Both the position numbers and the translations under genes were made by a program. Positions 6,641-64,000 of a stretch of DNA of 64,000 nt are shown one piece after another. The notes below the pieces were generated by a model. The model was not told the DNA's origin. It worked only from the letters and a program-made list of their open reading frames with translations, and ran no database searches. Positions within the stretch are counted from its first letter, which is position 1. The number at the start of each line of letters is the position of its first letter. The stretch is from Candidatus Magasanikiibacteriota bacterium (GTDB lineage Bacteria > Patescibacteriota > Patescibacteriia > Magasanikbacterales > GWA2-37-8). The stretch is from positions 6,921 through 70,920 of the forward strand of contig JACPGS010000018.1 of assembly GCA_016189025.1 (NCBI GenBank), written 5' to 3'.

Positions 6641-6643
6641 GAT

Positions 6644-6675
6644 AAAAGCCCCCCGACTAAGTCGGGGGGCTTTAG
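6644..6675. terminator. Bidirectional rho-independent terminator between ctpA and era
   Basis: aaaagCCCCCCGACTAAGTCGGGGGGcttt is a perfect GC-rich hairpin with A/T tracts on both sides. Confidence 0.7.
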
Positions 6676-9864: not shown

Positions 9865-9974
9865 GACTGTAGAAGAATACCGACGATAATCGTTATCCGC
9901 CTGGTCGCTGTCGCTATTGTTAGGATTGCCTGGTCGGTCGCCCCGACTTAGTCGGGGCGCCCTGATGCTAACTG
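9865..9974. repeat. Family-B MITE-like repeat, truncated copy (left TIR only)
   Basis: gactgtagaagaatacc TIR, then ctggtcgctgtcgctattg…ggtcggtcgCCCCGACTTAGTCGGGGcgccctgatgctaac. It lacks the large outer stem of full copies. Confidence 0.5.
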
Positions 9975-10000
9975 ATTTTTTTCATCCTCATCCCTAGTAC

Positions 10001-12506: not shown

Positions 12507-12575
12507 TCCTTGCGTTGAATTGCGAAATTGCCCTCTTCTGGTCGCTCGGTCGTGGTATACATTCTTGGCAATGTT

Positions 12576-14767: not shown

Positions 14768-14863
14768 ACGCAACGAGCGAGGGAGTGGTAGACGGGTTCC
14801 CTACGCGCGCACCCCCGCGTAGGCGGGGGGAGCACGGAGGGTGTCTACCACGACCGAGCGACT
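14768..14863. repeat. Family-A structured repeat, inverted orientation
   Basis: It is the reverse complement of the consensus ctggtcgctcggtcgTGGTAGAC…GTCTACCActccctcgctc, with inner hairpin ccccgcgtaggcgggggg. Confidence 0.55.
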
Positions 14864-24514: not shown

Positions 24515-24542
24515 AGATTTTAATTACGGAACTACTATATTT

Positions 24543-24652
24543 CTGGTCGCTCGGTTGTGGTAGACACCCCCCCGTGCTCCCCCCGCCTACGCGAGGGTGC
24601 GCGCGCAGGGAACCCGTCTACCACTCCCTCGCTCGGTTTCGTAATTCAAAGT
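24543..24652. repeat. Family-A structured repeat with partial TIRs
   Basis: ctggtcgctcggttGTGGTAGACaccccc…ccccgcctacgcgaggg…GTCTACCActccctcgctcggtttcgtaattcaaag. The left flank carries taattacggaac. Confidence 0.55.
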
Positions 24653-24715
24653 AATGATACTCATTACGTTCACATATTCTAGCAGATGCCTGGCGGTTTG
24701 GCTAGAGGGCAAACA

Positions 24716-24743: not shown

Positions 24744-24877
24744 GTGCTCATTCAGACCGTCTCGCTACTGTCATTCCCATCAAAATGGGAATCCATCGGA
24801 CAGTCGGAAAATTGCGTGCCGGGGAGAGTTTGTTGCTCGAGCCTCCCCCCGGCAGGCGGCTCGGCGCTGGCCAGGCG

Positions 24878-41410: not shown

Positions 41411-41528
41411 GTCATCCCGAGCGAAGCCCTGACTAAGTCGGGGCGAAGCCGAGGGATCCCTTGACAATTGGTGTAAGGGATTCCTCCGCTCCCCCGTACC
41501 ATTCTGGTACAGGGTCGGTCGGAATGAC
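41411..41528. repeat. PE palindromic element, intergenic full-length copy
   Basis: gtcatcccgagcgaagccCTGACTAAGTCGGGgcgaagccgagggatccc…gggattcctccgctcccc…ggtcggtcggaatgac. Confidence 0.55.
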
Positions 41529-46200: not shown

Positions 46201-46203
46201 ACT

Positions 46204-47277
46204 ATGCTGGACACGGAAGTAGAAAAAATTGTGGCGGCCCTTGACTGGGAAAAACGCTGGATGGAGCGTTTTACCCTTTTTGCCACATCATTAATCGGCG
46301 ACGTCTATTTTTTTGGCTGTCAGGAGCAATTGGGAGTGGCATTCAACCGGATGTTCTTTGTTTACCAGGAAGGGATGGTTACGTGTTATCAGCTGATTTC
46401 AGAAAATACGGTCTTTGGCAACGCGCTGGCGCGCCGTTTGGAGGCGGATCACCATCTGGTTGATGGGTGGAACCGGGAAGTTAAAGATAAAGTTGATGAG
46501 GTTCTTAGTTTGGTTGCCGCCTACGAAGGCACCCTTTTTGAAGAGTCACACTACCTGGCTTTTGAGCACGCTTTTCGCGCACTGCAGCCACCCTTCGTTC
46601 GCTTAACCAGAGTCGCCAATTATCTGGCGCCGTCTTGGCACAATACTTTGTTGCCGCCACTGAATGCCATGCGTCTGGCCACGGAAACGGTATACGGCCG
46701 CGTTGATTCGTTTGTGCAGCGATCATTACGGCAATTAGCCGGCCAGATTGGCCGCGATCCTGATTTGGTAGAACTATTATATCATTATGAAGTGAGGGAA
46801 TTTGTTAAGCAGGGCACTTTGCCACCGGATGCCGAATTAAGAAGCCGTGCGCCGGTTAGCGGATTATATTTTGAAAACGGACGGCAATTCTTTTGTGATA
46901 GTAAAGAAGTTGGCTTATTTCAACGCCTGGTTGCCGATAAATTTGGCTCCCAGGATGGTATTGTTCGCGGGGTCACTGCGGTTCCCGGATATGTGAAGGG
47001 TACGGCGCGAATAATTTTTGACCCCCAAAAACCGGGTGTCTTTAATGACGGCGATATTCTGGTGACTAACATGACGTATCCGGAGTTTGTGCCCCTGATG
47101 AAAAAAGCCGGGGCGATTGTTACCGATGGCGGCGGCATTTTGTGCCACGCGGCCATTGTTGCTCGAGAATTGGGCAAACCCTGCCTGATCAATACCCAGG
47201 TAGCCACCTCGACTTTTCACGATGGTGAGCAGGTGGAGGTAGATGCGACGCAAGGAACAATCAAGAGAGCGGCATAG
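46204..47277 (+). CDS. PEP-utilising-enzyme swivel-domain protein, paralog 2 (shorter, distinct N-domain)
   Basis: …GVTAVPGYVKGTARII…ILVTNMTYPEFVPLMKKAGAIVTDGGGILCHAAIVARELGKPCLIN…GEQVEVDA. Confidence 0.8.
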   Translation: MLDTEVEKIVAALDWEKRWMERFTLFATSLIGDVYFFGCQEQLGVAFNRMFFVYQEGMVTCYQLISENTVFGNALARRLEADHHLVDGWNREVKDKVDEVLSLVAAYEGTLFEESHYLAFEHAFRALQPPFVRLTRVANYLAPSWHNTLLPPLNAMRLATETVYGRVDSFVQRSLRQLAGQIGRDPDLVELLYHYEVREFVKQGTLPPDAELRSRAPVSGLYFENGRQFFCDSKEVGLFQRLVADKFGSQDGIVRGVTAVPGYVKGTARIIFDPQKPGVFNDGDILVTNMTYPEFVPLMKKAGAIVTDGGGILCHAAIVARELGKPCLINTQVATSTFHDGEQVEVDATQGTIKRAA

Positions 47278-47280
47278 CCT

Positions 47281-48804
47281 ATGGAGCCTAAATACCTGCA
47301 CGACAACGACCCCTGGCTGCTCGCCGAGGACATCCCCGGCAGCGATTTGTTTTTCTTTCAAATTCCCTTTTGGTGTTTTGCCAACCGTTTCGGGGAACAA
47401 ACCGGACGAGCGTATAAAAAAGTTTTGGCTCATTTTTCCGGGTATCAGATGTGGTTTTATTTTGGCGAGCAGGATTCTTATGAAGTAGGGGAACATATCG
47501 TTAATCGGATTGTGGAACAGCCAGGCTATGGGGCGGATATTAACCAAAATATCATAGCGATAGCCGACAAATTACGCGCTTGGTGCGCCACCATTCCCGT
47601 GGAAAAACTCAATAATCTTTCCGACGCCGAGTTGTGGGAAATATATCACACGCATTACCAGCTCCATTGCGAATTTTACACCTGGGTATGGATCGGCAAT
47701 GCGACGGACATGTTCCATGCTAATTTTACCAACCGGCTAAAGGCTTACTTAAAACAAATCGGCGTGGTAGAAGACAAGATTAATGAGTATCTGGTTACTC
47801 TGACTACTCCCACCGCGCGAACGCCGGTCTTTGTGGAACAGCAGGATTTGTTGTTGATTGCGGAGCAAATATACCAGGATCAGGCGATCAGGCAGTTGTG
47901 CGCTACTTCCACTCCGCTGGTATACGAAGACCTCCCGCGCCGCCTGCAAACAATGATCCAACAGCACTGGGAGAAGTATCACTATACCAAATTTATTTTT
48001 GTGGAGGGCGAATATACCATTAATGATTATCTCCGGCAGCTGCAAGATATATTGCGCGGCGAAACTGCGCCGCGGGCGATTATTGAGGGACAAATAGAAG
48101 CGCTGCAGGCGGCGGAAGAAAAAAAGCGAATTCTTTTGGCGCAGTTGCCCGTTGCCCCGGAGTGGCAGGAGATATTTGCGGTTTTTGGCGACTTCATGGT
48201 AACCAAAATTTATCGTCGTTATGCCCAGCTTTTTGCCTTGCATCGCATGGATAAAGTTCTTAAGGAAATTGCCCGGCGCAAGCAGCTTTCCCTGAAACAG
48301 GTAAAATTCATGTTGAAAAGTGAAGTAGAGCGGTTGCTCCTCAAAAATTCCTGTGATCCGGAACTGTTGCGGGAACGCGCAAAGCAGTGCGTGTATTATG
48401 TGGAAAAAGATGGCGAGGCAGTATACGTCGGCCCGGCAGCCGAGGCCCTTATTGCAAAAACCGTTCGCACTATTGATGCCTCAATCAGTGAATTGAAGGG
48501 CGAAGTCGGGTGCACGGGTTATGCCCAGGGACGAGTAAAAATTGTTATTCGCGCCGAAGAGATGGCCAAGATGAACGACGGCGATATTTTGGTTTCTATC
48601 GCCACTGACCCGGACATTGTGCCGGCGATGAAAAAAGCCGCGGCGATTGTTACCGAACAGGGCGGCGTTACCAGCCACGCCGCCATTGTCAGCCGCGAGC
48701 TTGGCATCCCTTGCGTCATCGGCACCAAAATCGCCACCAAAATATTTAAGGACGGGGATTTGGTGGAAGTAGATGCGAATAGGGGAGTGGTGAGAAAAAT
48801 ATGA
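47281..48804 (+). CDS. PEP-utilising-enzyme swivel-domain protein, paralog 3
   Basis: …GEVGCTGYAQGRVKIV…ILVSIATDPDIVPAMKKAAAIVTEQGGVTSHAAIVSRELGIPCVIGTKIATKIFKDGDLVEVDA. Confidence 0.8.
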   Translation: MEPKYLHDNDPWLLAEDIPGSDLFFFQIPFWCFANRFGEQTGRAYKKVLAHFSGYQMWFYFGEQDSYEVGEHIVNRIVEQPGYGADINQNIIAIADKLRAWCATIPVEKLNNLSDAELWEIYHTHYQLHCEFYTWVWIGNATDMFHANFTNRLKAYLKQIGVVEDKINEYLVTLTTPTARTPVFVEQQDLLLIAEQIYQDQAIRQLCATSTPLVYEDLPRRLQTMIQQHWEKYHYTKFIFVEGEYTINDYLRQLQDILRGETAPRAIIEGQIEALQAAEEKKRILLAQLPVAPEWQEIFAVFGDFMVTKIYRRYAQLFALHRMDKVLKEIARRKQLSLKQVKFMLKSEVERLLLKNSCDPELLRERAKQCVYYVEKDGEAVYVGPAAEALIAKTVRTIDASISELKGEVGCTGYAQGRVKIVIRAEEMAKMNDGDILVSIATDPDIVPAMKKAAAIVTEQGGVTSHAAIVSRELGIPCVIGTKIATKIFKDGDLVEVDANRGVVRKI

Positions 48805-48865
48805 AGAAACGAATCTGGCGAAAAAATTTTGTTATCAGGAGCAGGGAATTTTTAGCCTGAATAAT

Positions 48866-50374
48866 ATGGCCCAGGACTACACCATCTTCGTCCGCGATTT
48901 TCAGACCAGCCTGTTTCCGCAGTATATTTTAACGCACTTGTGGAACACCAGCGGCGTGGTGAATACCAAAGCGCAGATTGGCATGGCGAATCGGAACAAA
49001 GTGCTGGAGTACATTATTCCGCCGGGCGATTGGGAACATTTGCAAACGCAGGTACATGAGCGAACTGCCGCCGACCGAAATTTTATTCCCCAGGCCGTGC
49101 GCCAGGCGCGGGCGGCCGTAGATGCACTTAATGAGTATACAGAACAGCAAATAGCGCAGAAAGATTTGACCTGCGCCAGCAACGAAGAATTAGCCGAGAT
49201 TTACCGGCGCTATTTTGAGCTGAACATTCCCTGTTATGGTTACGGCAACATCATTTTTATTATTGAATTCGGCGAGCGCGCTTATTTTAGCAATCAAATC
49301 AAGCAGCTCTTGGCCGCGCGTGCGCCGGAACAGCCGGCAGCGTATTTTACTTTACTGACCACTCCGGCGGAACCGCACATTTTTCAGGAGCAAAGTTTGG
49401 CTCTGCTCCAGCTGGCCAGCGCCATTGAATTGCAAACCGAGATTAAAGATTGGTTTTTGGCAAACGCCGGCGCGGGCATTGAACATCAGCTATTAGCGAA
49501 ATATCCGGCAGTGCTTGAGCAGTTCCAAAAACATCGCGCTGCCTACTACTGGCTGTTTTACAGCTGGGAAGGCCCGGCGCTGACGGTGGGCGATTTTGTG
49601 ATGTTTGCCGTGGATATTTTACGGCGCGGGTCGGCCGGCGCGCAGTTAGCAGAAAAAAAGGCAGAACAGGCCACGCTCGGCACGCGTCAGGAAAAGATTA
49701 TGCAGGAGCTGCACTTTTCCGAAGAAGAGCGCTGGTGGGTAAAAATGGCGCAACTATGCGCCGCGTTCCAGCCCTATCGCAAAGCGCGGCAATTCAAATC
49801 CTGCAGCCACATGGAAAAGTATTTCCGGGAGGTAGCGCGGCGATTATATATCAGTCTGGATCAGGCGCGGTATCTTACTCATTACGAAGTTGCCGAGGCG
49901 CTACGCAAGGGCGAAGTAGACACTAACCTGCTAAACGAACGCCGCAAATTTTTTGTGTATATTTTTGATAATAACCAGCCGCGGTGTCTTACCGGTTCCC
50001 CAGCCGAAGCGTGGTATCAAGAACACGTGGCACAAGAGATGCATCAATTTTCCGGAGAACTACGCGGCACGGTCGCCTGCCCGGGCCGGGCCACGGGAAA
50101 AGTGCGGATGGTGAACAGTTACGAAGAAGGCCAACAGTTTCAGCCAGGTGAAATTTTAGTTTCATTTTCTACTAACCCCACCCTTCTGCCGGCGATGCGC
50201 CTGGCCGCGGCGATTATTACCGAAGAAGGCGGGCTCACCTGCCACGCGGCCATCGTCAGCCGCGAGCTCAACATCCCTTGCGTGGTGGGAATTAAGGGGA
50301 TTGTTTCCGGACTGCAAACTGGCGAAACAATAGAAGTGGATGCGATAAAAGGGTTAGTTAAAAAATTATCCTGA
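48866..50374 (+). CDS. PEP-utilising-enzyme swivel-domain protein, paralog 4
   Basis: …GTVACPGRATGKVRMV…ILVSFSTNPTLLPAMRLAAAIITEEGGLTCHAAIVSRELNIPCVVG…GETIEVDA. Confidence 0.8.
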   Translation: MAQDYTIFVRDFQTSLFPQYILTHLWNTSGVVNTKAQIGMANRNKVLEYIIPPGDWEHLQTQVHERTAADRNFIPQAVRQARAAVDALNEYTEQQIAQKDLTCASNEELAEIYRRYFELNIPCYGYGNIIFIIEFGERAYFSNQIKQLLAARAPEQPAAYFTLLTTPAEPHIFQEQSLALLQLASAIELQTEIKDWFLANAGAGIEHQLLAKYPAVLEQFQKHRAAYYWLFYSWEGPALTVGDFVMFAVDILRRGSAGAQLAEKKAEQATLGTRQEKIMQELHFSEEERWWVKMAQLCAAFQPYRKARQFKSCSHMEKYFREVARRLYISLDQARYLTHYEVAEALRKGEVDTNLLNERRKFFVYIFDNNQPRCLTGSPAEAWYQEHVAQEMHQFSGELRGTVACPGRATGKVRMVNSYEEGQQFQPGEILVSFSTNPTLLPAMRLAAAIITEEGGLTCHAAIVSRELNIPCVVGIKGIVSGLQTGETIEVDAIKGLVKKLS

Positions 50375-50381
50375 TAACATT

Positions 50382-51947
50382 ATGGCGATGGCCAAGGCGC
50401 TACGGCGCGATCGCTGGATTGTCGGCAATGAAGAAGACGGCACTAATTTGTACGCGCTCGGTTTGTATACGCCGATGTTTATTGTTGATTTTCCCCGGCT
50501 GGCCCAAGCGCCGCCTTGCTATCACGTATTTGAATTCAAAGGCGGCCATATGCGCTGGCTGGTGCCGGAAAATCACTCGCTCGCAATCGCCCGGCTTTTG
50601 TTGGAGCGCGTCCTCCGGCGTCCTAATTATTTTGGCGAAATCAGGCAAAAATTGGCGCGCATTTGCCATCAGGCTTATGCTTTTGGCAGGCAAGTTTTGC
50701 GGCTGAAAGTAGGAACTATCAGCGACGCCAGGTTATTATCACTACTGATGCGTTTTCAAAAATTGCAACGCACCATTATCGCCTATGGCATGATTTCTAC
50801 TTTAGTTGAAATACCCCACAGCCAGTTTGTTAAGCACCTGGAGAATTTTCTGGCTGATCACGTCAGCAAAATTAGCGCGCCGCCTGGCGCCCCTGAATAT
50901 TTTAGTATTCTTTCGGCGATTCCCGAAGAGAGTAGGCAGCGCCAGGAAGCCAAAAGTTTGCTGCGGTTATTGCAGACGGTGAAAAAATCTAAAAAATTAT
51001 TTAACGCCGTCGCCTCACTTAAACCAGGGGAGGGTAGCAAAAAATTTTTACGGCCTCCAGGCGATCCGGCAATGTTATCCTTTTATCGGCAGCTCAATTA
51101 TCATGTCAAAGAATTCTGCTGGGCGTATTATGGCTACGAAGGACCGGCGTACGGTATTGACCGCCCCCTTTCCGAGCTTGCCCAACTGCTCTCCGATAAA
51201 GTAGACCCGGCGGCGGAGCTAAAGCGTTTAGCCCGGGAGCGGGCGCAAATCAGGCCGGCGACCAAAATAGCCGAGCGTACCCTGAAGCTATCGGCTTACG
51301 AGCGCGCCTTATTCCAGGCCCTGCGCGATACGGTGTTTATGAAGCTTTATCGCAAAGACGCCATGACTTTTGGGTTTTATTCCGCCGAGTCATTGCTTAA
51401 AGAATTGGCGCGCCGGGCCGGCATTGCTTTAGCCGCCGCTAAATGTTTGGCGCCGGGCGAATATGCGCGGGCATTGAGGCAGGACAAAAAATTGATTGCC
51501 GAACTCTATCGGCGGATTCCGTATGCCGTATATGCGGCGGATTCTCTTAAACCGCGGGTATTATCCGGTAGTCGCGCCCGCCGGTTTATTAAAAGTATTT
51601 ACCGCGAGGAAGCGGTCGGCGATGTCCGCGAGCTCAAAGGCCAGGTGGCCTGTTTAGGGCACGCTACCGGCGCGGTAAAAATTATCAACGTCGCGGCGGA
51701 AATGGGCAAAATGAATAAGGGCGATATTTTAGTGTCCATCGCCACGATTCCCGATATTGTGCCGGCGATGAAAAAGGCGGCCGCGATTGTTACCGAGCAG
51801 GGCGGCATTACCTCTCACGCCGCCATCGTCAGCCGCGAACTCGGCGTCCCCTGCGTCATCGGCACCAAAATAGCCACCAAAGTATTTAAGGACGGGGATT
51901 TGGTAGAGGTGGATGCCATTGAGGGAATTGTGTACAAGCTCAAGTGA
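50382..51947 (+). CDS. PEP-utilising-enzyme swivel-domain protein, paralog 5
   Basis: …GQVACLGHATGAVKII…ILVSIATIPDIVPAMKKAAAIVTEQGGITSHAAIVSRELGVPCVIGTKIATKVFKDGDLVEVDA. Confidence 0.8.
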   Translation: MAMAKALRRDRWIVGNEEDGTNLYALGLYTPMFIVDFPRLAQAPPCYHVFEFKGGHMRWLVPENHSLAIARLLLERVLRRPNYFGEIRQKLARICHQAYAFGRQVLRLKVGTISDARLLSLLMRFQKLQRTIIAYGMISTLVEIPHSQFVKHLENFLADHVSKISAPPGAPEYFSILSAIPEESRQRQEAKSLLRLLQTVKKSKKLFNAVASLKPGEGSKKFLRPPGDPAMLSFYRQLNYHVKEFCWAYYGYEGPAYGIDRPLSELAQLLSDKVDPAAELKRLARERAQIRPATKIAERTLKLSAYERALFQALRDTVFMKLYRKDAMTFGFYSAESLLKELARRAGIALAAAKCLAPGEYARALRQDKKLIAELYRRIPYAVYAADSLKPRVLSGSRARRFIKSIYREEAVGDVRELKGQVACLGHATGAVKIINVAAEMGKMNKGDILVSIATIPDIVPAMKKAAAIVTEQGGITSHAAIVSRELGVPCVIGTKIATKVFKDGDLVEVDAIEGIVYKLK

Positions 51948-51955
51948 TTTGTGTT

Positions 51956-52360
51956 ATGGAAAAAGCAGAGATGTGGTTAACTCGTTTTATTGCTTGGGCG
52001 AGAATTAAAACCAAAATTCATCTTGCCGAACGGGAAATATATTTTCGTGAGGGAGAAATTTGGTGGACTAGCTTAGGCGTGAACATTGGCCATGAGCAAG
52101 ATGGGAAGAATGAATATTTTGAACGGCCGGTATTGATTTTAAAGAAGTTTGGCAGGTATACTTTATGGGCTGTTCCTTTGTCGAGCCGCCTTAAGTATAG
52201 TCCTTATTATTTTCAATATACTTACCATGGGAGAAATTATTCTGCTTTACTTACCCAATTACGGTTGATTAGTAGTAAAAGGTTATTGAGAAAGGTTGGA
52301 GTGATTGATGTTATGGTATTTCGGGCTATTAAAGAAAAGATAAAAAAATTATTACAATAA
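51956..52360 (+). CDS. MazF/PemK-like endoribonuclease toxin-fold protein in a low-G+C insert
   Basis: REGEIWWTSLGVNIGHEQDGKNEYFERPVLILKKF…WAVPLSS compares with the PemK/MazF pattern RGDIYWVDFGPPVGSEQGGRRPALVVS…PLT. Confidence 0.45.
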   Translation: MEKAEMWLTRFIAWARIKTKIHLAEREIYFREGEIWWTSLGVNIGHEQDGKNEYFERPVLILKKFGRYTLWAVPLSSRLKYSPYYFQYTYHGRNYSALLTQLRLISSKRLLRKVGVIDVMVFRAIKEKIKKLLQ

Positions 52361-52540
52361 AAAACGATTCCCGCTCTTCTAGAGTGGGAATCTCGGAGCT
52401 TCTCTCGTAAAAGAGAAGCCATTTGACAGAAGCAGCTTACGCCACTTCGCCAGGTATATTACCAAAGTAAAAATATTTGTCAAGTAAACTATCCACATAG
52501 TCCAATCAAGGAATCTAAACTATAGTTTATAGTTCCTACT

Positions 52541-52822
52541 ATGGCACTGGGGCAGCTGACGTTAGCGGTATACGGCGACGTGCAGGGCGTGGGGTTCCGC
52601 TGGTTTGTGCAAGAGCAGGCGGTTAAGCTCGGTCTAGTCGGCTGGGTACGCAATAATCCGGATGGTACGGTCGGCGTCGTTGCCCAAGGAGTCGAGGAAA
52701 AGTTGCGTGAATTTTTGGCGCTCTGCCGCCACGGCCCGGGTTTTGCCCGCGTGCGCGAGGCGGTGGAAGAGTGGCAGGAAATTCCTAAACTGGACTTTGT
52801 CGATTTTGAGATTAAGTTTTGA
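52541..52822 (+). CDS. acyP: Acylphosphatase
   Basis: VYGDVQGVGFRWFVQEQAVKLGLVGWVRNNPDGTVGVVAQG is the canonical acylphosphatase signature (VxGxVQGVxFR … GWVxN). Confidence 0.85.
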   Translation: MALGQLTLAVYGDVQGVGFRWFVQEQAVKLGLVGWVRNNPDGTVGVVAQGVEEKLREFLALCRHGPGFARVREAVEEWQEIPKLDFVDFEIKF

Positions 52823-52834
52823 TAGTGTTGCCAT

Positions 52835-54370
52835 ATGAATCAGCGACAGTTTAAGAAATATTTGGGCGAGGCAGAGGCGCTGCATAGTGAATTCGGGGTA
52901 ACACCGCTGACGATTACACTAATTCAGCACGGTTTTCATCATCCTTTGTTAAAGAAGTATTTGCGTGAATGGTATTTGCCGACGTCGGTAGTTGAATGTA
53001 TCGGCGATAAAATTAATTGGTTTATTAGTGCCGATTTTTTGCGTGCCCAGGAACATTTTGTCGTTGATACCATCAAAAGAGATCGTTCTCTGGTAAAAAC
53101 CGTCATCCGCGAGTCAAGACGACAAGGGAAGGCCATTGATTTAATTGTTCGTAAGATTGACACAGCGTCCAGCAAGGGAGTTACTGCTAAGCGAGCTGCC
53201 CTCTTATTGATCAAGTTATTTGCGGCCATGGAGCAGCTTTGTGCGTATGGTTTTATTGCAGTTTTAAGTGATTTATATTATTTTACTTTCACTCGCGAAC
53301 TAACTACGCTAATAGAACAATATGCCGCTTCGCAAGGATCAGCGCAACCCGTCAAAGAATACGTGAGCATCTTGATAACTCCTACTGTAAAGACCGTTAC
53401 CTGGAAATATAAGCAGGCCTTGTTTCAATTAGCACTGAAGATAGCAAGATTAGGGATAACCCGTCCCGCTAATCCGCCCAAATTAATTATCAGTAACAAA
53501 ATATTGTTAAAGCAAGCTCAACAAATCGTTCGTGAATTTTATGCCGTAAATTATGGTCATCGCGGTCCGGCACTGACTCTTAAAGCAATAATTTCTGAAG
53601 TCGCCGATCTCGTTAGCAAAAATAAAGTGCATCGCGCCTATCGCGCCTTTATATCCGAACATACCGCTATCCGAGCCAAACAATGTCGTTATATTCGCCG
53701 GTTAAAACTTAGCAAACAAGCGGTATATTTACTAGAAGCTGCCAAACAGTTTATCTATATTAAAGGATTTCGTTTAGAAAAACTTTATCAATCCTATGCC
53801 GCCATTGATCGGTTATTGTCTCAAGTGACTGATCATAAAATATCGTTAGATAATCTTAAACGTTGTTCTAAGTTTGAAGTACTGCGCTTCTTAAAAGATG
53901 GCAAGCTGCCGACAGCCCGCGAGTTAACCAGACGTACAAGACACTTGACGTATACGGCTTGGCAACATACCAAAGCCAAAATTCGCACTGGCGCCGCCGC
54001 TGGTCGTTATCTTCAGACTTTCGTCGCTAAAACCAAAGATAATAAAGTACGTTTTTCCGTTCACGGTAACATTGCCTGCGCGGGACGAGCGACCGGCACG
54101 GCAAAAATTGTCCAAAGCGGCAAAGATATGCAAAAAGTACGTGAGGGAGATATTTTAGTGGCGGTGCAAACTATTCCTGAATTGCTACCGGCGATGAAAA
54201 AAGCCGCTGCTTTTGTTACTGATATTGGAGGCATCACCTCCCACGCAGCAATCGTTAGTCGCGAAATGGGCAAGCCCTGTGTAATTGGCACGCGAGTGGC
54301 TACCCAGGTGTTTAAAGACGGAGATTTAGTGGAAGTAGATGCCATTAAAGGTATCGTGCAAAAGATATAG
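52835..54370 (+). CDS. PEP-utilising-enzyme swivel-domain protein, paralog 6 (AT-richer, most divergent)
   Basis: …GNIACAGRATGTAKIV…ILVAVQTIPELLPAMKKAAAFVTDIGGITSHAAIVSREMGKPCVIG…GDLVEVDA. Confidence 0.8.
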   Translation: MNQRQFKKYLGEAEALHSEFGVTPLTITLIQHGFHHPLLKKYLREWYLPTSVVECIGDKINWFISADFLRAQEHFVVDTIKRDRSLVKTVIRESRRQGKAIDLIVRKIDTASSKGVTAKRAALLLIKLFAAMEQLCAYGFIAVLSDLYYFTFTRELTTLIEQYAASQGSAQPVKEYVSILITPTVKTVTWKYKQALFQLALKIARLGITRPANPPKLIISNKILLKQAQQIVREFYAVNYGHRGPALTLKAIISEVADLVSKNKVHRAYRAFISEHTAIRAKQCRYIRRLKLSKQAVYLLEAAKQFIYIKGFRLEKLYQSYAAIDRLLSQVTDHKISLDNLKRCSKFEVLRFLKDGKLPTARELTRRTRHLTYTAWQHTKAKIRTGAAAGRYLQTFVAKTKDNKVRFSVHGNIACAGRATGTAKIVQSGKDMQKVREGDILVAVQTIPELLPAMKKAAAFVTDIGGITSHAAIVSREMGKPCVIGTRVATQVFKDGDLVEVDAIKGIVQKI

Positions 54371-54377
54371 ATTTTCT

Positions 54378-54998
54378 ATGATTGCCAAAAAAAATATTAA
54401 ATTCATTATCTTTGACGCCTACGGCGTCTGCCTTACCGGCGGGTATCCGGATACCTGCCGGTATCTGGCCAAAAAGTTTAACCGCGATTGGCAAGATATT
54501 TACGCTGTCCTTTATACCAAATATTTCAATCAGGCCGCTACTAAGCAAATCACCCAACAGGCGGCCTGGGCCAAGGCGCTTAAAGAGCTTAATTTTCCCT
54601 TAACAGTGGCCGCGGTTAAGCGGATTCATTATCGTCTGATGGGTTTGAATTGGCCGGTACTGAAAATTGTGCAAAAAATAAGCGAAAAAGTTCCTGTTCT
54701 GTTGTTAAGCAAAAATACGCGGAGCCAATTCAAAGACATTAATAATAAATTTCCCCGGTTGAGGCAAATTTTTGGCCAGCACATTATTAATACCTGGGAG
54801 TATAACCTGCCTAAAGCCAGCCCGGAAACGCTAGCGATGATTTTTAAGCGATATCATATTACCGACCCGGCCACGGTAGTGAGCATTGATGACCAAGACA
54901 ATAATTTAGTGGCGGCGCGGGAATTGGGCGTTAATGCTATTTTGTATAGAAATTTTGGTCAATTCAAGCGCGAGCTTGCTCGGCTGATTAACATTTAG
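54378..54998 (+). CDS. HAD-superfamily phosphatase
   Basis: Motif I IIFDAYGV and motif IV SIDDQDNN. Start placed at the internal ATG 54378. Confidence 0.65.
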   Translation: MIAKKNIKFIIFDAYGVCLTGGYPDTCRYLAKKFNRDWQDIYAVLYTKYFNQAATKQITQQAAWAKALKELNFPLTVAAVKRIHYRLMGLNWPVLKIVQKISEKVPVLLLSKNTRSQFKDINNKFPRLRQIFGQHIINTWEYNLPKASPETLAMIFKRYHITDPATVVSIDDQDNNLVAARELGVNAILYRNFGQFKRELARLINI

Positions 54999-55002
54999 AG
55001 CT

Positions 55003-56529
55003 ATGCGCCAGAAATATCATCAGGGTGCATGGTCGCTCTTGTCGCAGCGCCAGCGAATGAGCCCGTTTCCCAATTACTTGTCCATGGAAGCGGTGTGCCG
55101 CGAGATGAAGCAGTTCGTCGGTATCGCGTTGCGCGACGTTATTTTATTTTTCCAGGGCAATATCATGTTTGCTTTTCAGCCTTTGCTGTCGCACCAGCGC
55201 GCGGCGCGCTTGATTGCCGACCGCGTGCAAAAAAATCCGCGCCTGTATGCTGGTTTGATTAAAAAACAACATGGCTACGGAAAAAATTTAGTAAACTTTG
55301 CCCGGCAGGCGGCGCGCCAGACTAGGCGGGGCAAGGCTTCTCCCCAGCAATTATGCGATTGGTTTACCGGCTACGCCCAGCGATATAAATTAGTTTATGC
55401 CTCGTACGGGTCGGTTTGGACAATGGAAGACGAGCTAGTCGGAGATCTTTATGCGCTGGTGGAAAAGCGAATAAAAGATCCGCTTGAGGCCAGCAATATC
55501 TTAAATACGCTCACCAAACAGCCGCTGGCGATGGTGGTCACCCGCGAACGCCAGGCATTATTGAAAATGGCAATGAGCATTGCTTTACATCAGGAATGGC
55601 AGCAGGCGGTGAGGGCCGGCGAGTGGTCAGGGATTAAAAAGTATCAGCCGCTCCTCCGACTGATTACCGCGCACCAGAAAAAATTTTACTGGATCACCCG
55701 CGATTATGAAGATCCAATTTTGACTAATGAAAAAATTATTGAGCGGCTGCGGCAGGTATTGGCAGGTGATGTTGCCCAAGAATATCGTCAATTAACAGAT
55801 GCTTTAGCCAATGACCTCGCGGCGAGAAAGCGCTATGAAAAAGAACTACGGCTCACGGCGGCAGAACGCCAACTCTTTGCCGCGATGCGCGATGCCGCCC
55901 ATCTTAAAGAGCTGCGCAAACAATATGTTTCATCATCGCTTTATCATTTTGATTCAGTACTGGCCGAGATCGGGAAACATTTGTATTTAAGCATCAAGCA
56001 AGTGCGCTTTATGCATACCGCAGATGTCGCCGCGGCCCTGCTTAAAGGTCGGGATTTAACCCGGGCGCTTAACGAGCGGATGAAACTATCAATGTGGCAT
56101 ACGGTGGATGGCCGCGATACCAAAGTCAGTGTCGGCCCGGAGGCCGCGGCAATGTTTGCCCGGTTTTGTACGGTGGATAAGAATACCAGAGAATTTACCG
56201 GCATGCCGGTTTCCCCTGGGTTGGCGCGCGGCCCTGCTAGGTTGGTGATGAATCCGGACGAGTGCGACAAGGTTCAGAAAGGTGATATTATTGTGAGCAT
56301 TCAGGTGGTGCCGAGTTTTTCCACCGCTATTATCAAATCCGCCGGCATGGTCTGCGACGGCGGGCACGGCATCACTTCGCACCCGGCCACCCTGGCCCGC
56401 GAAGCCAAAATACCCTGCGTTATCCAAACCCGCTTTGCGCGGGAGGTAGTGAAAGATGGTGATATTCTGGAGGTAGATGGGTATCAGGGTGTGGTACGAA
56501 TTATTGACAAAAAGGATGCCGGGAGATGA
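55003..56529 (+). CDS. PEP-utilising-enzyme swivel-domain protein, paralog 7
   Basis: …GMPVSPGLARGPARLV…IIVSIQVVPSFSTAIIKSAGMVCDGGHGITSHPATLAREAKIPCVIQ…GDILEVDG is a variant His motif (SHPATLARE). Confidence 0.75.
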   Translation: MRQKYHQGAWSLLSQRQRMSPFPNYLSMEAVCREMKQFVGIALRDVILFFQGNIMFAFQPLLSHQRAARLIADRVQKNPRLYAGLIKKQHGYGKNLVNFARQAARQTRRGKASPQQLCDWFTGYAQRYKLVYASYGSVWTMEDELVGDLYALVEKRIKDPLEASNILNTLTKQPLAMVVTRERQALLKMAMSIALHQEWQQAVRAGEWSGIKKYQPLLRLITAHQKKFYWITRDYEDPILTNEKIIERLRQVLAGDVAQEYRQLTDALANDLAARKRYEKELRLTAAERQLFAAMRDAAHLKELRKQYVSSSLYHFDSVLAEIGKHLYLSIKQVRFMHTADVAAALLKGRDLTRALNERMKLSMWHTVDGRDTKVSVGPEAAAMFARFCTVDKNTREFTGMPVSPGLARGPARLVMNPDECDKVQKGDIIVSIQVVPSFSTAIIKSAGMVCDGGHGITSHPATLAREAKIPCVIQTRFAREVVKDGDILEVDGYQGVVRIIDKKDAGR

Positions 56530-59941: not shown

Positions 59942-60955
59942 ATGTCGCATTTAAAATTTTTTCCCGATCTTACCAAAAAAGATGTGGCAATAGCCGGCGG
60001 CAAGGGCGCGTCGCTCGGCGAACTGACGCGAGCCGGAATTCCGGTGCCGCCCGGGTTTGTGGTGCTGGCGGCGGCTTGGGACAGATTTTTAGAAGAAACC
60101 GATCTTAATGCCGAAATTATGGCGCGACTCAAAGAGGTTAATCCGGCTGATACCAATTCAGTGGATCGGGCCAGCAATGTTTTGCGTGATGCGATTCATG
60201 ATCGGTCGCTGCCGGCTGATTTAGGCGAGGAGATTTTGGCGGCGTTTGACGAGTTAGGGAGTAAAAAGTCGGGGGCTCGGAATGACAGCGCGTGTTTGGT
60301 AGCGGTGCGATCGAGCGCGACCGCCGAGGACTCGGCAGTGGCGAGCTGGGCCGGTGAGCTGGAAACGTATTTGAACACCAGGCGGGAAAATGTTTTAGAG
60401 CGAGTGAAACTATGCTGGTCGTCGCTTTTTACCCCGCGCGCTATTTTTTATCGCCACGAAAAAAATCTGATTGATCATTATGTATCGGTCGCGGTAGTAG
60501 TGCAGCAAATGGTGCAATCAGAAATCTCCGGCATTGCTTTTACCGTGCATCCGGTAACCGAGGACCGGGACCAGATGATTATTGAAGCGGGATTTGGCCT
60601 CGGCGAAGCGATTGTCGGCGGCCAGATTACGCCGGACTCGTATGTAGTAAGCAAGAGCGAGATGAGTATTATTGATATTAATGTTAGTACCCAGACCAGA
60701 AAGTTAGTGAAAAAGGTAAAAGGGGGAAAGGGACAAACCGACGAGGAAAATAAGTCTAACGAATGGGTAGATTTGAGTGAAGCGGAAGGAGGCCGGCAAA
60801 AGTTAAGCGGCCAGCAGATTATTGAGCTGGCGGCGATTTGCCAGAGGATTGAAAAACATTACGGATTCCCCTGCGACATTGAGTGGGCGTATGAGGGGGG
60901 AAAATTCTACGTTACCCAAAGCCGGCCGATTACGACCTTAAAAATCCGCGGTTAA
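59942..60955 (+). CDS. Stand-alone PEP-synthase / pyruvate-phosphate-dikinase-type N-terminal ATP-binding (ATP-grasp) domain protein
   Basis: …DVAIAGGKGASLGELTRAGIPVPPGFVV…CLVAVRSSATAEDSAVASWAGELETYLN…SGIAFTVHPVT…QMIIEAGFGLGEAIVGG…GFPCDIEWAYEGGKFYVTQSRPIT matches PPDK_N motifs throughout. It ends without a His domain or a PEP-binding domain. Confidence 0.8.
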   Translation: MSHLKFFPDLTKKDVAIAGGKGASLGELTRAGIPVPPGFVVLAAAWDRFLEETDLNAEIMARLKEVNPADTNSVDRASNVLRDAIHDRSLPADLGEEILAAFDELGSKKSGARNDSACLVAVRSSATAEDSAVASWAGELETYLNTRRENVLERVKLCWSSLFTPRAIFYRHEKNLIDHYVSVAVVVQQMVQSEISGIAFTVHPVTEDRDQMIIEAGFGLGEAIVGGQITPDSYVVSKSEMSIIDINVSTQTRKLVKKVKGGKGQTDEENKSNEWVDLSEAEGGRQKLSGQQIIELAAICQRIEKHYGFPCDIEWAYEGGKFYVTQSRPITTLKIRG

Positions 60956-61031: not shown

Positions 61032-61484
61032 ATGCCTCCAAGCAATACCAAACAGACAGCCGGGGAAAGTCAAACGCTCGGGGAGATTTTAGAAATCGTC
61101 CAATTTATTAAGGACAACGCGGCTAGCCAGGTTAGCGTGGATAAGTTAGACGAACGCGTTAGCTCTCTTGAGGACAAGGTGTCATCGCTTGACGATAAGG
61201 TGTCGTCACTTGATAGCAAGGTGTCATCGCTTGATAGCAGGGTGGCTGCTTTAGAAAATGCAGTAATCCAGGGATTTGCCGAAATGCACCGCCGTTTTTC
61301 TCAAGTGGATACGGAATTGGATTCTATTTATCGCGAATTGGAAACTATTAAAAAAGAATTACAGCAGTTAGATAAACGGGACGCCGAGGATGCCAATGCT
61401 TTGGCTCATGACGTGCTGACTTTAAGGGAGCGTTTGGAACAATTGGAACAGCGGCTGCGACAGCTGGAGTTAGCGCGTGCTTAG
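61032..61484 (+). CDS. Coiled-coil protein with 9-aa tandem repeats ((D/S)KVSSLD)x4
   Basis: …ERVSSLEDKVSSLDDKVSSLDSKVSSLDSRVAALEN… is encoded by about 27-bp tandem nucleotide repeats at 61155-61262. Confidence 0.5.
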   Translation: MPPSNTKQTAGESQTLGEILEIVQFIKDNAASQVSVDKLDERVSSLEDKVSSLDDKVSSLDSKVSSLDSRVAALENAVIQGFAEMHRRFSQVDTELDSIYRELETIKKELQQLDKRDAEDANALAHDVLTLRERLEQLEQRLRQLELARA

Positions 61485-61644: not shown

Positions 61645-61974
61645 ATGGCATTTGATTCTCCCCGGCAGATGTACCCGGTCAACGAGAAGTGCGCCGGTTG
61701 CGGCGTGGCGATTACCGAGCTGCCCTTCCAACCGACGGCGGGTCGCCCGGTGTACTGCACCGATTGCAATCGTCAGTATCGCGATCGGCGGCGCGGCGGT
61801 GGTGGCGGTGGCGGCGGCATGAGCCGCGGTCCGCGCCAGATGTACGCCGTAGACCTGCAATGCGCCGGCTGCGGCACGGCTATTACCGAGCTGCCGTTCC
61901 AGCCCACCGGCGATCGTCCGGTTTATTGCCGCACCTGCCTGGCCGCTAAACGCGGCAGCGCGATGGCAGCCTAA
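61645..61974 (+). CDS. Small protein with two tandem CxxC…CxxC zinc-ribbon repeats joined by a poly-Gly linker
   Basis: PRQMYPVNEKCAGCGVAITELPFQPTAGRPVYCTDCNRQY is repeated as PRQMYAVDLQCAGCGTAITELPFQPTGDRPVYCRTCLAAK, with RRRGGGGGGGGM between them. Confidence 0.55.
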   Translation: MAFDSPRQMYPVNEKCAGCGVAITELPFQPTAGRPVYCTDCNRQYRDRRRGGGGGGGGMSRGPRQMYAVDLQCAGCGTAITELPFQPTGDRPVYCRTCLAAKRGSAMAA

Positions 61975-62020
61975 AGTTGTCCATTGTCAAAAACAAAAGC
62001 CCGCGGTATAATTACGGCGG

Positions 62021-62088
62021 GTTTTTTGTTGTCATCCCCGCGTAAGCGGGGATCCATATTGAATTATGACTCTGGATTCCCGCTTTCG
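62021..62088. repeat. PE palindromic element immediately upstream of (and falsely extending) the HD-domain ORF
   Basis: gtcatCCCCGCGtaaGCGGGGatcc…ggattCCCGCtttCGCGGGaatgac has the same architecture as the copy at 26196..26280. Confidence 0.55.
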
Positions 62089-62119
62089 CGGGAATGACAG
62101 CGGTAGCGTCTTAATCATT

Positions 62120-62740
62120 ATGAGCACTCAAGAACAGCGTGCCTTAATCAGTTACACCAAACAAAAAGTAGCGCGGCATTTTCGCCATCATCGCGACCCC
62201 TCGCACGGCGCGGCGCATGCCGAGCGGGTGCGGCGATTGGCCGCCTATTTATCTGCCCGCGAGGGACAGCCGGCATTTTTAGCGGAACTCGCGGCGCTGC
62301 TGCACGACATCGGCCGTCGCGTAGAGCGCCGGCGCATTCCGCTAACGCACCACGAGCTTTCTTATCGGTTGTGTCGAGAGTGGCTTCGTGCCGATCGCCG
62401 GTTTGACGCGCTAACGCCGGCGCAAAAGCGCGAGGTGCTTTATGCCGTTCGTTATCACGGCAATGACGACGCCAACGATTACCGGAGCGCTGCTCTGGTG
62501 CGCGATGCCGATAAACTTGACGCCTTTGGTAAAATCGGGCTGCGGCGCTCGGTCATTCACTGCCAGACCTCGGAAGTTGCTTTGCCGCTTAACGTCAGTT
62601 TGCGCCTGCGCTACCATCTGCTGCATTTTTTTAAGACCGCGGCGGCGCGCCGTCTGGTGCGGCAGCGGCGCCTGATGGAGCCGATTGCCGATTATCTGCG
62701 CCGGCTGAATCGGAAATTGATTAAGCCGATCCGGTTGTAG
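62120..62740 (+). CDS. HD-domain phosphohydrolase
   Basis: HSHGAAHAERV…LLHDIGR (H…HD motif). Start placed at the ATG 62120 (MSTQEQ…) because the ORF-track start lies inside the PE repeat. Confidence 0.75.
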   Translation: MSTQEQRALISYTKQKVARHFRHHRDPSHGAAHAERVRRLAAYLSAREGQPAFLAELAALLHDIGRRVERRRIPLTHHELSYRLCREWLRADRRFDALTPAQKREVLYAVRYHGNDDANDYRSAALVRDADKLDAFGKIGLRRSVIHCQTSEVALPLNVSLRLRYHLLHFFKTAAARRLVRQRRLMEPIADYLRRLNRKLIKPIRL

Positions 62741-62752
62741 TCTGCCGCTGTT

Positions 62753-64000
62753 ATGGCGCCGCCCAAACGGATTAAAGTATTATGTGCCTTAAGCGGGGGG
62801 GTGGATTCCTCGGTCGCCGCGGCTTTATTGGTGCGCGCCGGTTACCGCGTCACGGCAGCCTTCATGGTGAATTATGACGACCAAGAACCCATTCGCTTCG
62901 CTCAGGGCAGGCAAGGAGCAATTAGCAATGAGCCGAGACCAGCGAGTTGTTGGCTGCCGGATTATCGCGATGCGGTGCGGGTGGCCGCCCGTCTGGAGAT
63001 CCCCATTATTAAATTAGATTTTACCAAAGAATACCGGAAGTTTGTTCTGAATTATTTATTCCGGGAATACGCCGCCGGGCGCACGCCGAATCCGGACATC
63101 TTATGCAATAAGTTTGTTAAATTCGGCGCCTGGCTTACTAAAGCGCGGGAATTAGGGTTTGATTATCTGGCGACGGGGCATTATGCGAAAGTCACTACGG
63201 TGAATAATTATTCGTCACCCCCGCGGAAGCGGGGGCCCAGAGAGGTAGATTTCCGCTGGCGCGGGAATGACGATAGGGCTGCCTTTCGTTTATTAGAAGC
63301 AAGAGATAAAAACAAAGACCAAACCTATTTTTTACACCAGCTTACTCAAGCGCAATTAGCGCCCGTGTTGTTTCCCCTCGGTGAATATACTAAACCAGAA
63401 GTGCGGCGGTTGGCCAAGCGTTGGGGATTGCCGACCGCGGAAAAAGAGGAGAGCATGGGTATTTGTTTTGTCGGCGAAGTGCCAATGAAGGAATTTTTGC
63501 AAACCAGAATCAAGCCGAAGCCCGGCAAAATTGTGCTAGCTGATGGTACGGTGGTGGGGAAGCACGACGGGTTGGCGTTTTACACGATCGGGCAACGCCA
63601 TTCTCTTAACCTGTCATCCCGAGCCGAGTCGAGGGATCCCATTCGGCAGGCTCAGGGCAGGCCCTCCGCTCCCCATTCGACTCGTCCTCCTACGGGGGAT
63701 TCGCTTCGGGGCGGTCGGGATGACGGTAAGCCATTATACGTTGTTGCTAAACGCTTGCCGGCTAACGAACTGGTGGTGGGCTACGAGAATGATCCGCTGT
63801 TGTATAAAAAAGAAACGGTGGTGGCCGAGGTGAATTGGATCAGTGGACACCCGCCTAAATTGCCGCTACAATGCTTAGTGCGGTTGAGGCACCGGCAGCC
63901 ACTCCAGCGATGCGTGGTTAGCTGTTATTCCAAGCGGAGCCTTTCCACTGCGCTCAGGGCAAACTCCGCGAAGTCGAGGAATCTCTTAACCGTTCGTTTT
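62753..64000 (+). CDS. mnmA: tRNA-specific 2-thiouridylase MnmA (3' end outside window) with multiple in-frame palindromic-element insertions
   Basis: IKVLCALSGGVDSSVAAALL PP-loop, …DILCNKFVKFGAWL…DYLATGHYA…QTYFLHQL…MGICFVGE… are conserved MnmA blocks. They are interrupted by the PE-derived segments listed below. The ORF is open to the window end. Confidence 0.8.
   Translation, partial: MAPPKRIKVLCALSGGVDSSVAAALLVRAGYRVTAAFMVNYDDQEPIRFAQGRQGAISNEPRPASCWLPDYRDAVRVAARLEIPIIKLDFTKEYRKFVLNYLFREYAAGRTPNPDILCNKFVKFGAWLTKARELGFDYLATGHYAKVTTVNNYSSPPRKRGPREVDFRWRGNDDRAAFRLLEARDKNKDQTYFLHQLTQAQLAPVLFPLGEYTKPEVRRLAKRWGLPTAEKEESMGICFVGEVPMKEFLQTRIKPKPGKIVLADGTVVGKHDGLAFYTIGQRHSLNLSSRAESRDPIRQAQGRPSAPHSTRPPTGDSLRGGRDDGKPLYVVAKRLPANELVVGYENDPLLYKKETVVAEVNWISGHPPKLPLQCLVRLRHRQPLQRCVVSCYSKRSLSTALRANSAKSRNLLTVRF
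63224..63282. repeat. PE palindromic element inside mnmA (second insertion)
   Basis: gtcaCCCCCGCGgaaGCGGGGGccc…gcgcgggaatgac, translated as NYSSPPRKRGPREVDFRWRGNDDRA. Confidence 0.55.
63613..63727. repeat. PE palindromic element inside mnmA (third insertion)
   Basis: gtcatcccgagccgagtcgagggatccc…gctcagggcaggcc…gggggattcgcttcggggcggtcgggatgac, translated as LSSRAESRDPIRQAQGRPSAPHSTRPPTGDSLRGGRDDGKP. Confidence 0.55.

Follow-up and report, generated by a model that had tools for sequence, protein, structure and literature searches.

The 64-kb stretch of DNA analyzed here (part of contig JACPGS010000018.1 of a Candidatus Magasanikbacteria metagenome-assembled genome, MAG; hereafter the window) ends within a gene for MnmA, and the question it raises is how this conserved tRNA-modification enzyme came to hold four segments of extra sequence. 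A preliminary description, made from the sequence, had taken the segments for four copies of one palindromic element, inserted in-frame after the manner of the Rickettsia palindromic elements (RPE). Results of our analyses indicate that the segments are insertions in an intact gene, that they lie in loops of the predicted fold, and that they most probably arose by repeated insertion of short hairpin repeats of more than one family.

The mnmA gene is intact and carries four extra segments

Frame 1 read from position 62753 runs for 416 codons without a stop up to the window end. The Pfam search of this open reading frame (ORF) gave matches to PF03054 (HUP domain, 6e-67), PF20259 and PF20258 (PRC-barrel, C-terminal barrel), and the PDB search returned MnmA chains at 1e-75 to 1e-67. 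As judged from these matches, the ORF encodes MnmA, the tRNA 2-thiouridine(34) synthase. The full-length protein (P0001, MBI2444173.1) has 444 amino acids (aa) and no internal stop. The alignment is invariant at the PP-loop (S14-S19), D115, C118, and C238, and the PP-loop motif SGGxDS of MnmA, its catalytic Cys pair, and its three-domain fold are kept. Three Logan assemblies from separate sequencing runs contain an identical mnmA sequence, inserts included, so the inserts are not assembly artefacts.

62753-64000, plus strand: mnmA coding sequence, the first 416 of 444 codons; the gene extends 87 nt beyond the window end.

In comparison with S. pneumoniae MnmA, E. coli MnmA, and the 9hlv chain, about 15 residues are extra at aa ~43-65. 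Relative to the same proteins there are further extra residues at aa 149-172 (~24), aa 289-322 (~30), and aa ~392-410 (~13-16). The comparison with MnmAs in the PDB thus confirmed the four in-frame extra segments of the preliminary description. Its sites were right, while some of the boundaries had to be moved: the second insert (ins2) spans 63214-63271 rather than 63224-63282, the third (ins3) ends at 63724, and the fourth (ins4) covers 63923-63983 and does not continue to the window end, as the last 17 nt of the window, downstream of ins4, are conserved MnmA sequence again. The GC content of the inserts is 60%, vs. 51% for the remainder of mnmA.

62879-62947, plus strand: ins1 (V1 loop, aa 43-65, DQEPIRFAQGRQGAISNEPRPAS), apparently a composite degenerate repeat remnant; aa 48-57 are low-occupancy columns.
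63214-63271, plus strand: ins2 (type A, 58 nt), two dRS3-like hairpins, the second one inverted, with a short spacer between them; encodes SSPPRKRGPREVDFRWRGNDD.
63613-63724, plus strand: ins3 (type B, 112 nt), GTCATCCCGA...TCGGGATGAC; encodes SSRAESRDPIRQAQGRPSAPHSTRPPTGDSLRGGRDD.
63923-63983, plus strand: ins4, a hairpin module in degenerate form, TGTTATTCCAAGCG...CGAGGAATC, the loop of which contains ~35 nt, GCTCAGGGCA among them; encodes CYSKRSLSTALRANSAKSRNL.

Sequence and palindromy of the inserts

Two repeat families were distinguished. Type A consists of TGTCATYCCCGCGNAAGCGGGGATCCA, a spacer, and TGGATTCCCGCTTNCGCGGGAATGACA, and type B has the form GTCATCCCGAGC...GTCGGGATGAC; the clamp GTCATYCC...GGRATC is common to both, whereas the interior differs, and the group as a whole has the clamp GTCATYCC...GGRATGAC. 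The ins2 segment, of type A, has the ends GTCAC..ATGAC and arms of 21 nt that are 81% complementary, and it folds better than all 200 shuffles (z -3.4). Its right arm, ATTTCCGCTGGCGCGGGAAT, deviates from the dRS3 pattern by one mismatch, and its left arm is degenerate. In ins3 the terminal inverted repeat GTCATCCCGA/TCGGGATGAC is complementary at 10 of 10 positions and is accompanied by an inner 8-nt repeat; the insert is collinear with an intergenic type B copy at 41411-41528 and folds with z -2.4. The hairpin ends of ins4 are type-B-like, the insert as a whole reaching z -1.1 against shuffles. No terminal repeats are present in ins1 (z -1.0), which holds CCCATTCG....GCTCAGGGCAGGC, common to the interior of ins3 in pairwise alignment, followed by GAGCAATTAGCAATGAGC, which it has in common with the V1 insert of the orthologue P0003; it has the appearance of a composite remnant.

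Exact matches to the 10-mer GCTCAGGGCA number three in the 64 kb, each of them within an insert (ins1, ins3, and ins4). By sequence comparison, ins3 and ins4 are assigned to a related GTCATCCCGAGC subfamily that is distinct from ins2. The idea of four copies of a single element had thus to be abandoned for a mixed set, made up of a dRS3-type element (ins2), a member of another subfamily (ins3), a degenerate module (ins4), and a composite remnant (ins1). Likewise, the palindromic character proposed for all of them was found for ins2 and ins3, but not for ins1 and ins4. The encoded peptides are hydrophilic, with a grand average of hydropathicity (GRAVY) of -0.5 to -2.3, and ins1 to ins4 have net charges of 0, +3, +2, and +5, respectively.

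Position of the inserts in the protein fold

A model of the protein was obtained with AlphaFold (AF2) from an alignment of 120 homologues, with a mean predicted local distance difference test (pLDDT) value of 85; a single-sequence run (pLDDT 33) was discarded. The model core matches 2hma, 2der, and 2det with a target-normalized template modeling (TM) score of 0.88, and the four inserts are the only low-confidence stretches. In the model, ins1 is part of the loop that connects strand 32-39 to helix 68-81, and ins2 is at the tip of a beta-hairpin (strands 145-151 and 176-182; pLDDT about 49-61). The linker of the central and C-terminal domains, before strand 328-334, is occupied by ins3 (pLDDT 45-54), and ins4 is placed at the tip of a beta-hairpin in the C-terminal barrel (strands 385-391 and 412-421; pLDDT 67-70). 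All four inserts are thus predicted to lie in loops between conserved secondary-structure elements, the location that had been foreseen. On the chain of the E. coli MnmA-tRNA complex (2DER, 2DET, 2DEU) the points of insertion fall at residues ~50-62, 148/149, 265, and ~331-335. Across the homologues, insert peptides have a GRAVY of -1.08 vs. -0.32 for the core and are enriched in R, S, and P.

The same loops are filled by other repeats in related MnmA proteins

For comparison we used the 120 best MnmA homologues, all of Patescibacteria type and 341 to 462 aa in length. Eight or more residues were present in variable region V1 in 44 proteins, in V2 in 58, in V3 in 48, and in V4 in 28; at other alignment sites, the N-terminus excepted, this was the case in at most 7 proteins. 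At least one site is filled in 73 of the 120 proteins, and all four are filled in two (P0001 and P0037), P0001 having the most insert residues of the set (80 aa). The accumulation in this gene, which had been called extreme, is so with regard to the amount of inserted sequence and the number of filled sites, but the phenomenon as such is common in the clade and other proteins are hit as well.

The insert peptides come from many unrelated repeat families, with CHSERSEESL, SPLGRGRGGL, EIRNPKSEIRN..YPISNI, SFRAESRNPL, VIPAKAGIQ, SRKRGS..LDSRLHGND, TDYRLQ, and KSIKSKV among them. The DNA of filled loops in relatives folds at -36 to -68 kcal/mol, and that of empty loops is near zero. Many orthologues have short loops, and distant MnmAs are without the segments. 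Together with a closely related pair of which one member is filled at V2 (P0039, L004) and the other empty (P0099, L005; 88% core identity), this speaks for insertion and against a loop of ancestral origin. That sister lineages would be free of the inserts was borne out in part only: it is true of the short loops and of distant MnmAs, but in the 73 proteins with filled sites other repeats have taken the place.

Type A elements are found at V2 in six proteins. With the exception of P0070 and P0106 (81% core identity), none of these are mutual nearest relatives, and the gains were probably independent. At the same site, P0012 (L006) has a type A element and P0007 (L007) a different one, while the flanking DNA is 90-97% identical. 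The element starts 26 nt after the GHYA codons in P0001, 11 nt after them in P0012, and 17 nt after them in P0039, and in all three it is read in one element frame, xxG TCA YYC CCG CGN AAG CGG. Among 35 pairs of proteins at 80-90% core identity, 4 are discordant (in presence or insert sequence) at V1, 8 at V2, 19 at V3, and 12 at V4, which points to a fast turnover of the inserts.

A different picture was obtained for ins3 and ins4, at which sister lineages had been expected to be empty. The left end of ins3 coincides, to the nucleotide, with that of the P0002 and P0003 inserts, and ins4 has its position and ends in common with the CHSERS..RNP inserts of P0002, P0003, and P0006. Since these positions are shared with sister lineages, ins3 and ins4 are older insertions, of subclade level, that later diverged; ins2, in turn, is lineage-specific.

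Some loops hold parts of repeats or repeats within repeats. The 'empty' V3 loops of P0039 and P0099 read GTCATTCCCGCGCAG and GTCATCCCCGTGAAG, respectively, and so correspond to a dRS3-type hairpin of which the first half is left, as though most of the element had been deleted. At V4, P0012 and P0007 share a CCCCGCTTG..CGGGG hairpin, and their comparison revealed a further hairpin, of 31-33 nt, that is placed exactly in its apical loop. In the region ~70 nt upstream of V4, a perfect palindrome, GGACAGGTCGCGACCTGTCC, stands in the same pair in place of part of a conserved strand.

Copies elsewhere in the window

Related elements were found at five further places in the window.

340-439, unstranded: type A, intergenic; underlies a spurious minus-strand ORF, 341-526.
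24770-24792, unstranded: solitary dRS3-type hairpin GTCATTCCCATCAAAATGGGAAT, a pattern match.
26196-26280, plus strand: type A, within a gene for a beta-CASP RNase (ORF 25765-27210) and in frame with it; encodes LSSPRKRGSRRGQAAVGISLLDSRLRGNDI (LSSPRKRGS...LLDSRLRGNDI).
41411-41528, unstranded: type B, intergenic, the nearest relative of ins3 in the window; fold z -6.4.
62031-62098, unstranded: type A, intergenic, just 5′ of an HD-domain gene; provides a false ATG at 62066; fold z -8.3.

These elements are small, have terminal inverted repeats, occur in multiple copies, and have no coding capacity of their own. There are four full type A copies, two of them within genes, and the units are single and not arrayed; the spacer is very short in ins2 and several tens of nt long in the 340-439 copy. 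The terminal-hairpin pattern has 22 matches in the window vs. 4.7 expected, and the dRS3-type pattern ATYCCCN8GGGRAT has 6 exact matches vs. 0.01 expected. The copies in mnmA (z -3.4 and -2.4) are less palindromic than the others in the window (z -5.3, for the element at 26196-26280, to -8.3), and the coding copies are poorer palindromes than the intergenic ones (z -6.4 and -8.3). In the copy at 41411-41528 a small hairpin is nested in the loop of the left module. A tblastn search of the window with the insert peptides revealed no coding insertion besides the known copies.

As had been proposed, the repeats also give rise to false ORFs. The one at 341-526 is spurious, and the longest ORF of the HD-domain gene, 62066-62740, begins inside the element at 62031-62098 (MTLDSRFRGNDSGSVLII...). 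Homology of the HD protein to its orthologue starts at M19, and the true start is therefore probably at 62120.

In the Rfam scan of the window no family reached the threshold. A known structured RNA was rejected as a candidate, as the Rfam matches on the intergenic element were only sub-threshold. One of these, on the minus strand at 62007-62112 and overlapping the intergenic type A element, is to FtrB, a small RNA of Francisella (34 bits against a cut-off of 66, E 0.003); FtrB may derive from a similar repeat.

Insertions in other proteins

The element in the beta-CASP RNase (TTHA0252-like) is read in the same frame as ins2, and the protein has ~35 aa extra vs. T. thermophilus TTHA0252, exactly at the element. 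As a control we analyzed LepA (window 19204-21012) with its 120 best homologues. In these a single internal hot spot is present, which follows aa 70 and is filled in 13 of the 120, and the inserts belong to the same repeat-peptide families as those of MnmA, including the dRS3-type CHSRENGNPE...DPRFRGDD. In the LepA of this window the hot spot is unfilled; both LepA and DnaB of this genome are of ordinary length in comparison with the E. coli proteins. A further type A element is found in-frame (VIPAKAGIQ...LDSRLRGND) at 6951-7037 of L019, within an ORF on the minus strand (6519-7439) of a Candidatus Parcubacteria MAG. This ORF is likely Tgt (tRNA-guanine transglycosylase), as read from its sequence motifs. 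Given that the beta-CASP RNase, relatives of LepA, and the probable Tgt are also hit, the process appears to be proteome-wide in the clade, MnmA standing out by its four tolerant loops and high occupancy.

Relation to dRS3 repeats and other known elements

The end of the type A element links it to repeats of Neisseria. At least 120 DNA stretches contain its 25-mer, GTCATYCCCGCGNAAGCGGGRATCC, without mismatch, with 151 matches listed, vs. about 0.02 matches expected by chance according to our own arithmetic for uniform base composition. Among the matches listed, the hosts are Alpha-, Beta-, Gamma-, and Deltaproteobacteria, Chloroflexota, Planctomycetota, Acidobacteriota, Gemmatimonadota, Nitrospirota, Omnitrophota, Elusimicrobiota, and several lineages of the candidate phyla radiation (CPR), and the matches are often inverted pairs 35-60 nt apart. 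Among these matches the frame of the 25-mer was read by hand for the Parcubacteria ORF, long stop-free stretches being common in high-GC DNA.

In Neisseria, 20-bp inverted repeats ATTCCCN8GGGAAT (dRS3) flank RS elements of 19-214 bp and form the Neisseria intergenic mosaic elements (NIME), the arrays of which were described as intergenic and not seen outside this genus (Bentley et al. 2007, PMC1797815). Type A has an end hairpin that conforms to the dRS3 consensus, and all full type A copies have two inverted hairpins around a variable spacer, as in an isolated dRS3-RS-dRS3 unit. The P0039 element includes an exact match to a published RS3 primer, CATTCCCGCGCAGGCGGGAATC (PMC2527323), and a gonococcal sequence upstream of pilE has a full unit of type A architecture (PMC7593972). 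Unlike NIME, the units described here are single and occur also in coding sequence, and the hairpin is present in many phyla; the left arms in this window, moreover, are a variant of the consensus, ATCCCC..GGGGAT.

In behavior, the elements match the RPE, which were reportedly described by Ogata and colleagues in 2000 (Science 290:347) and 2002 (Genome Res 12:808). RPE are short palindromic repeats, both intergenic and inserted in-frame inside essential genes, where they encode hydrophilic peptides tolerated by the fold (PMC10969869). The mnmA inserts resemble them in having intergenic as well as in-frame genic copies, hydrophilic loop peptides, and an apparently functional host protein, and the comparison made in the preliminary description stands: an essential gene has received sequence of repeat origin in-frame and has stayed intact. 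They differ from RPE in the host (Patescibacteria, CPR), in size (58-112 nt vs. about 100-150 bp), in their dRS3-type ends, in several unrelated families competing for the same loops, in fast turnover and nesting, and in four sites per gene.

Bacterial MITEs (miniature transposable elements with inverted repeats) may also overlap ORFs, as does QMITE1 of Coxiella (300-400 bp; PMC5896051), and ERIC and BOX repeats can be intragenic (PMC10969869). With MITEs the elements have in common that they are small, non-autonomous, and multicopy, have terminal inverted repeats, and in some cases are in-frame or make spurious ORFs. Unlike MITEs, they showed no target-site duplication at the eight copies inspected, and no parent insertion sequence was found in the window ORFs screened; compared with QMITE1 they are much shorter, and the insertions are internal to conserved enzymes and not terminal overlaps. 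The elements are also similar to the repetitive extragenic palindromes (REP) and bacterial interspersed mosaic elements (BIME), mobilized by REP-associated tyrosine transposases (RAYT), which are short hairpins of high G+C content that occur in very many copies, frequently as inverted pairs, and are targets for other elements. REPs, however, are extragenic by definition, the elements here begin with GTCAT, and no RAYT gene is present among the window ORFs screened. RAYT-associated REPs usually start with a conserved GTAG-type tetranucleotide.

A literature search, with most subscription journals outside its reach, yielded nothing on in-frame palindromic repeats in Patescibacteria and nothing relevant on palindromic elements or MITEs in this group or the CPR; with peptides encoded by the repeats, such as FRGNDG and PAKAGIQ, it gave only papers on collagen. 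The phenomenon is thus a known, RPE-like one, but the element type is different and cosmopolitan and the phylum new; recurrent colonization of the same loops by several families and nesting are added.

How the inserts arose

We consider it probable that the four inserts are the product of insertions that occurred repeatedly and passed a selective filter, which retained those that were in-frame, hydrophilic, and in loops, as in the case of RPE. According to this explanation short, non-autonomous hairpin repeats, which are also intergenic in the same genome, would have colonized mnmA at four surface loops. Insertions would land widely, and survivors would be those that add a multiple of three bases without a stop codon in the used frame, encode a hydrophilic disordered peptide, and sit in loops that the fold tolerates, of which MnmA would have four. 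Later decay would proceed by point mutation, partial deletion, hairpins nested in loops, or replacement by other elements, with ins2 and ins3 still recognizable and ins4 and ins1 older or more eroded. The analysis demonstrates that the sequences belong to repeat families, that ins2 and ins3 are palindromic, that the frame is open, the loops are the site of the inserts, and the catalytic residues are kept, and that inserts were gained, lost, or replaced among relatives; translation and near-neutrality of the inserts, as well as the way in which the elements move, are inferred.

Several observations weigh against this explanation. Translation of the inserts and activity of the enzyme are predictions. 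With the nearest orthologue only 60% identical, there is no empty-site allele for this genome. No consistent direct repeat or target sequence indicative of a target-site duplication was seen at eight element copies, and no transposase or recombinase was found in the 20 longer window ORFs screened against Pfam. The palindromy of ins1 and ins4 is not significant, and their repeat origin is suggested by short shared motifs and positional homology. In addition, 4 of the 5 coding insertions in the window fall in one 1.3-kb gene. Selection alone would explain this clustering only if MnmA were unusually tolerant, which leaves room for targeting.

Targeted colonization, in which a hairpin-specific recombinase or copy-copy recombination directs the elements to loop hairpins or their remnants, and the same loops are refilled, is in our view the strongest rival, though a somewhat unlikely one. 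It would account for hairpins that lie exactly in the apical loops of older hairpins (V4 of P0012 vs. P0007, ins4 vs. the CHSERS..RNP inserts, and the 41411 copy), for the half hairpins in the V3 loops of P0039 and P0099, and for different families at one site in the near-identical genes of P0012 and P0007. The dRS3 repeats of Neisseria, moreover, serve as integration sites for a phage-encoded recombinase and were proposed as recombination sites (PMC1797815), and MnmA loops are filled in 61% of relatives vs. 11% for the single LepA hot spot. At the same time, the three probably independent type A insertions at V2 start at different distances from the GHYA codons (26, 11, and 17 nt), the copies inspected have neither a conserved target sequence nor a duplication, the window ORFs screened include no recombinase gene, and the nested examples are few.

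Some of these elements of targeting return in a broader proposal, which we put forward tentatively and with more doubt than confidence. In Patescibacteria, cosmopolitan dRS3-type and related hairpins may continuously colonize, erode, and re-colonize permissive loops of essential enzymes proteome-wide, with a turnover that outpaces core divergence, and may be directed in part to existing hairpins or remnants.

That the inserts were co-opted, with arginine-rich loops adding an RNA-binding surface or mRNA hairpins regulating stability or translation, we regard as improbable. The net charges of 0 to +5 would suit an RNA-binding role, all the proteins hit bind RNA or the ribosome (MnmA, beta-CASP RNase, LepA, and probable Tgt), although this sample is small and non-random, and the positions of ins3 and ins4 persist across the subclade. 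The insert sequences, however, are unconserved, close pairs are almost never both filled with similar sequence, many orthologues manage with short loops, and the model predicts disorder.

It is still less probable that these are ordinary lineage-specific loops, grown by local duplication or slippage, with a chance resemblance to repeats. Such an origin is refuted for ins2 and ins3, since both are delimited by inverted ends and have relatives of full length at other places in the window. It could be considered for ins1 and ins4, which fold no better than shuffles and have only motifs of 10-25 nt in common with other copies; against it, GCTCAGGGCA is confined to the inserts, the ends of ins4 match the hairpin inserts of relatives, and the exact 25-nt type A end is far too frequent across phyla to be due to chance. 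Finally, a pseudogene, a mis-assembly, or removal of the inserts from RNA or protein before the enzyme functions is hardly credible in view of 444 stop-free codons with every invariant residue present, three identical independent assemblies, a frame kept by all four inserts (needless if they were cut out of the RNA), no Rfam match above threshold, and insert lengths of 58-112 nt, well below what an intein or a self-splicing intron requires.

Implications

In-frame colonization of the RPE kind has so far been treated as a curiosity of Rickettsia. The present locus taken singly is one more such case, and the clade-wide pattern is the more interesting part, as it suggests a second large arena for the process, in an uncultured streamlined lineage (CPR) and with a more widespread element type. 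The elements tie the dRS3/NIME repeats of Neisseria to a hairpin present in many phyla. If continuous colonization is the correct reading, NIMEs would represent a local variety of an element that is pan-bacterial, and in streamlined genomes with little intergenic space the element would survive mainly inside genes, remodeling loops. The recurrent hits provide a natural map of the loops in MnmA, and in LepA of relatives, that accept 10-40 extra residues. For annotation, the repeats matter in that they lengthen proteins, make false starts and spurious hypothetical ORFs, and produce misleading similarity among unrelated proteins in metagenome databases.

Other features of the window

A separate family of hairpins, ~90 nt each, is present at 14842 (minus strand), 16429, 29064, 30075 (minus strand), 34527, 35664, 38468, and 43778, with partial copies at 9893-9988, 12516-12561, and 24521-24655. 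Its members are intergenic, often directly 3′ of genes, have RNA minimum free energies of -46 to -64 kcal/mol, and have no Rfam match. Two subfamilies differ by compensatory stem changes (GGCAGAC/GTCTGCC vs. GGTAGAC/GTCTACC), and the apical loop holds a variable small hairpin.

A tandem array of about seven paralogous genes (roughly 360-520 aa) extends over 44752-56529. In the two members screened (44752-46200 and 55003-56529) the last domain is a PEP-utilizers mobile domain, and a separate PPDK_N gene follows the array at 59942-60955; relatives appear to have a single such gene before PPDK_N. The ORF at 61032-61484 contains 21-nt tandem repeats (SSLEDKV/SSLDDKV/SSLDSKV, 61164-61234). In the adjoining ORF, 61645-61974, we found an internal 100-nt duplication, 76% identical, the halves of which are linked by eight glycines; its syntenic counterpart in relatives has zf_Tbcl_2 zinc ribbons.

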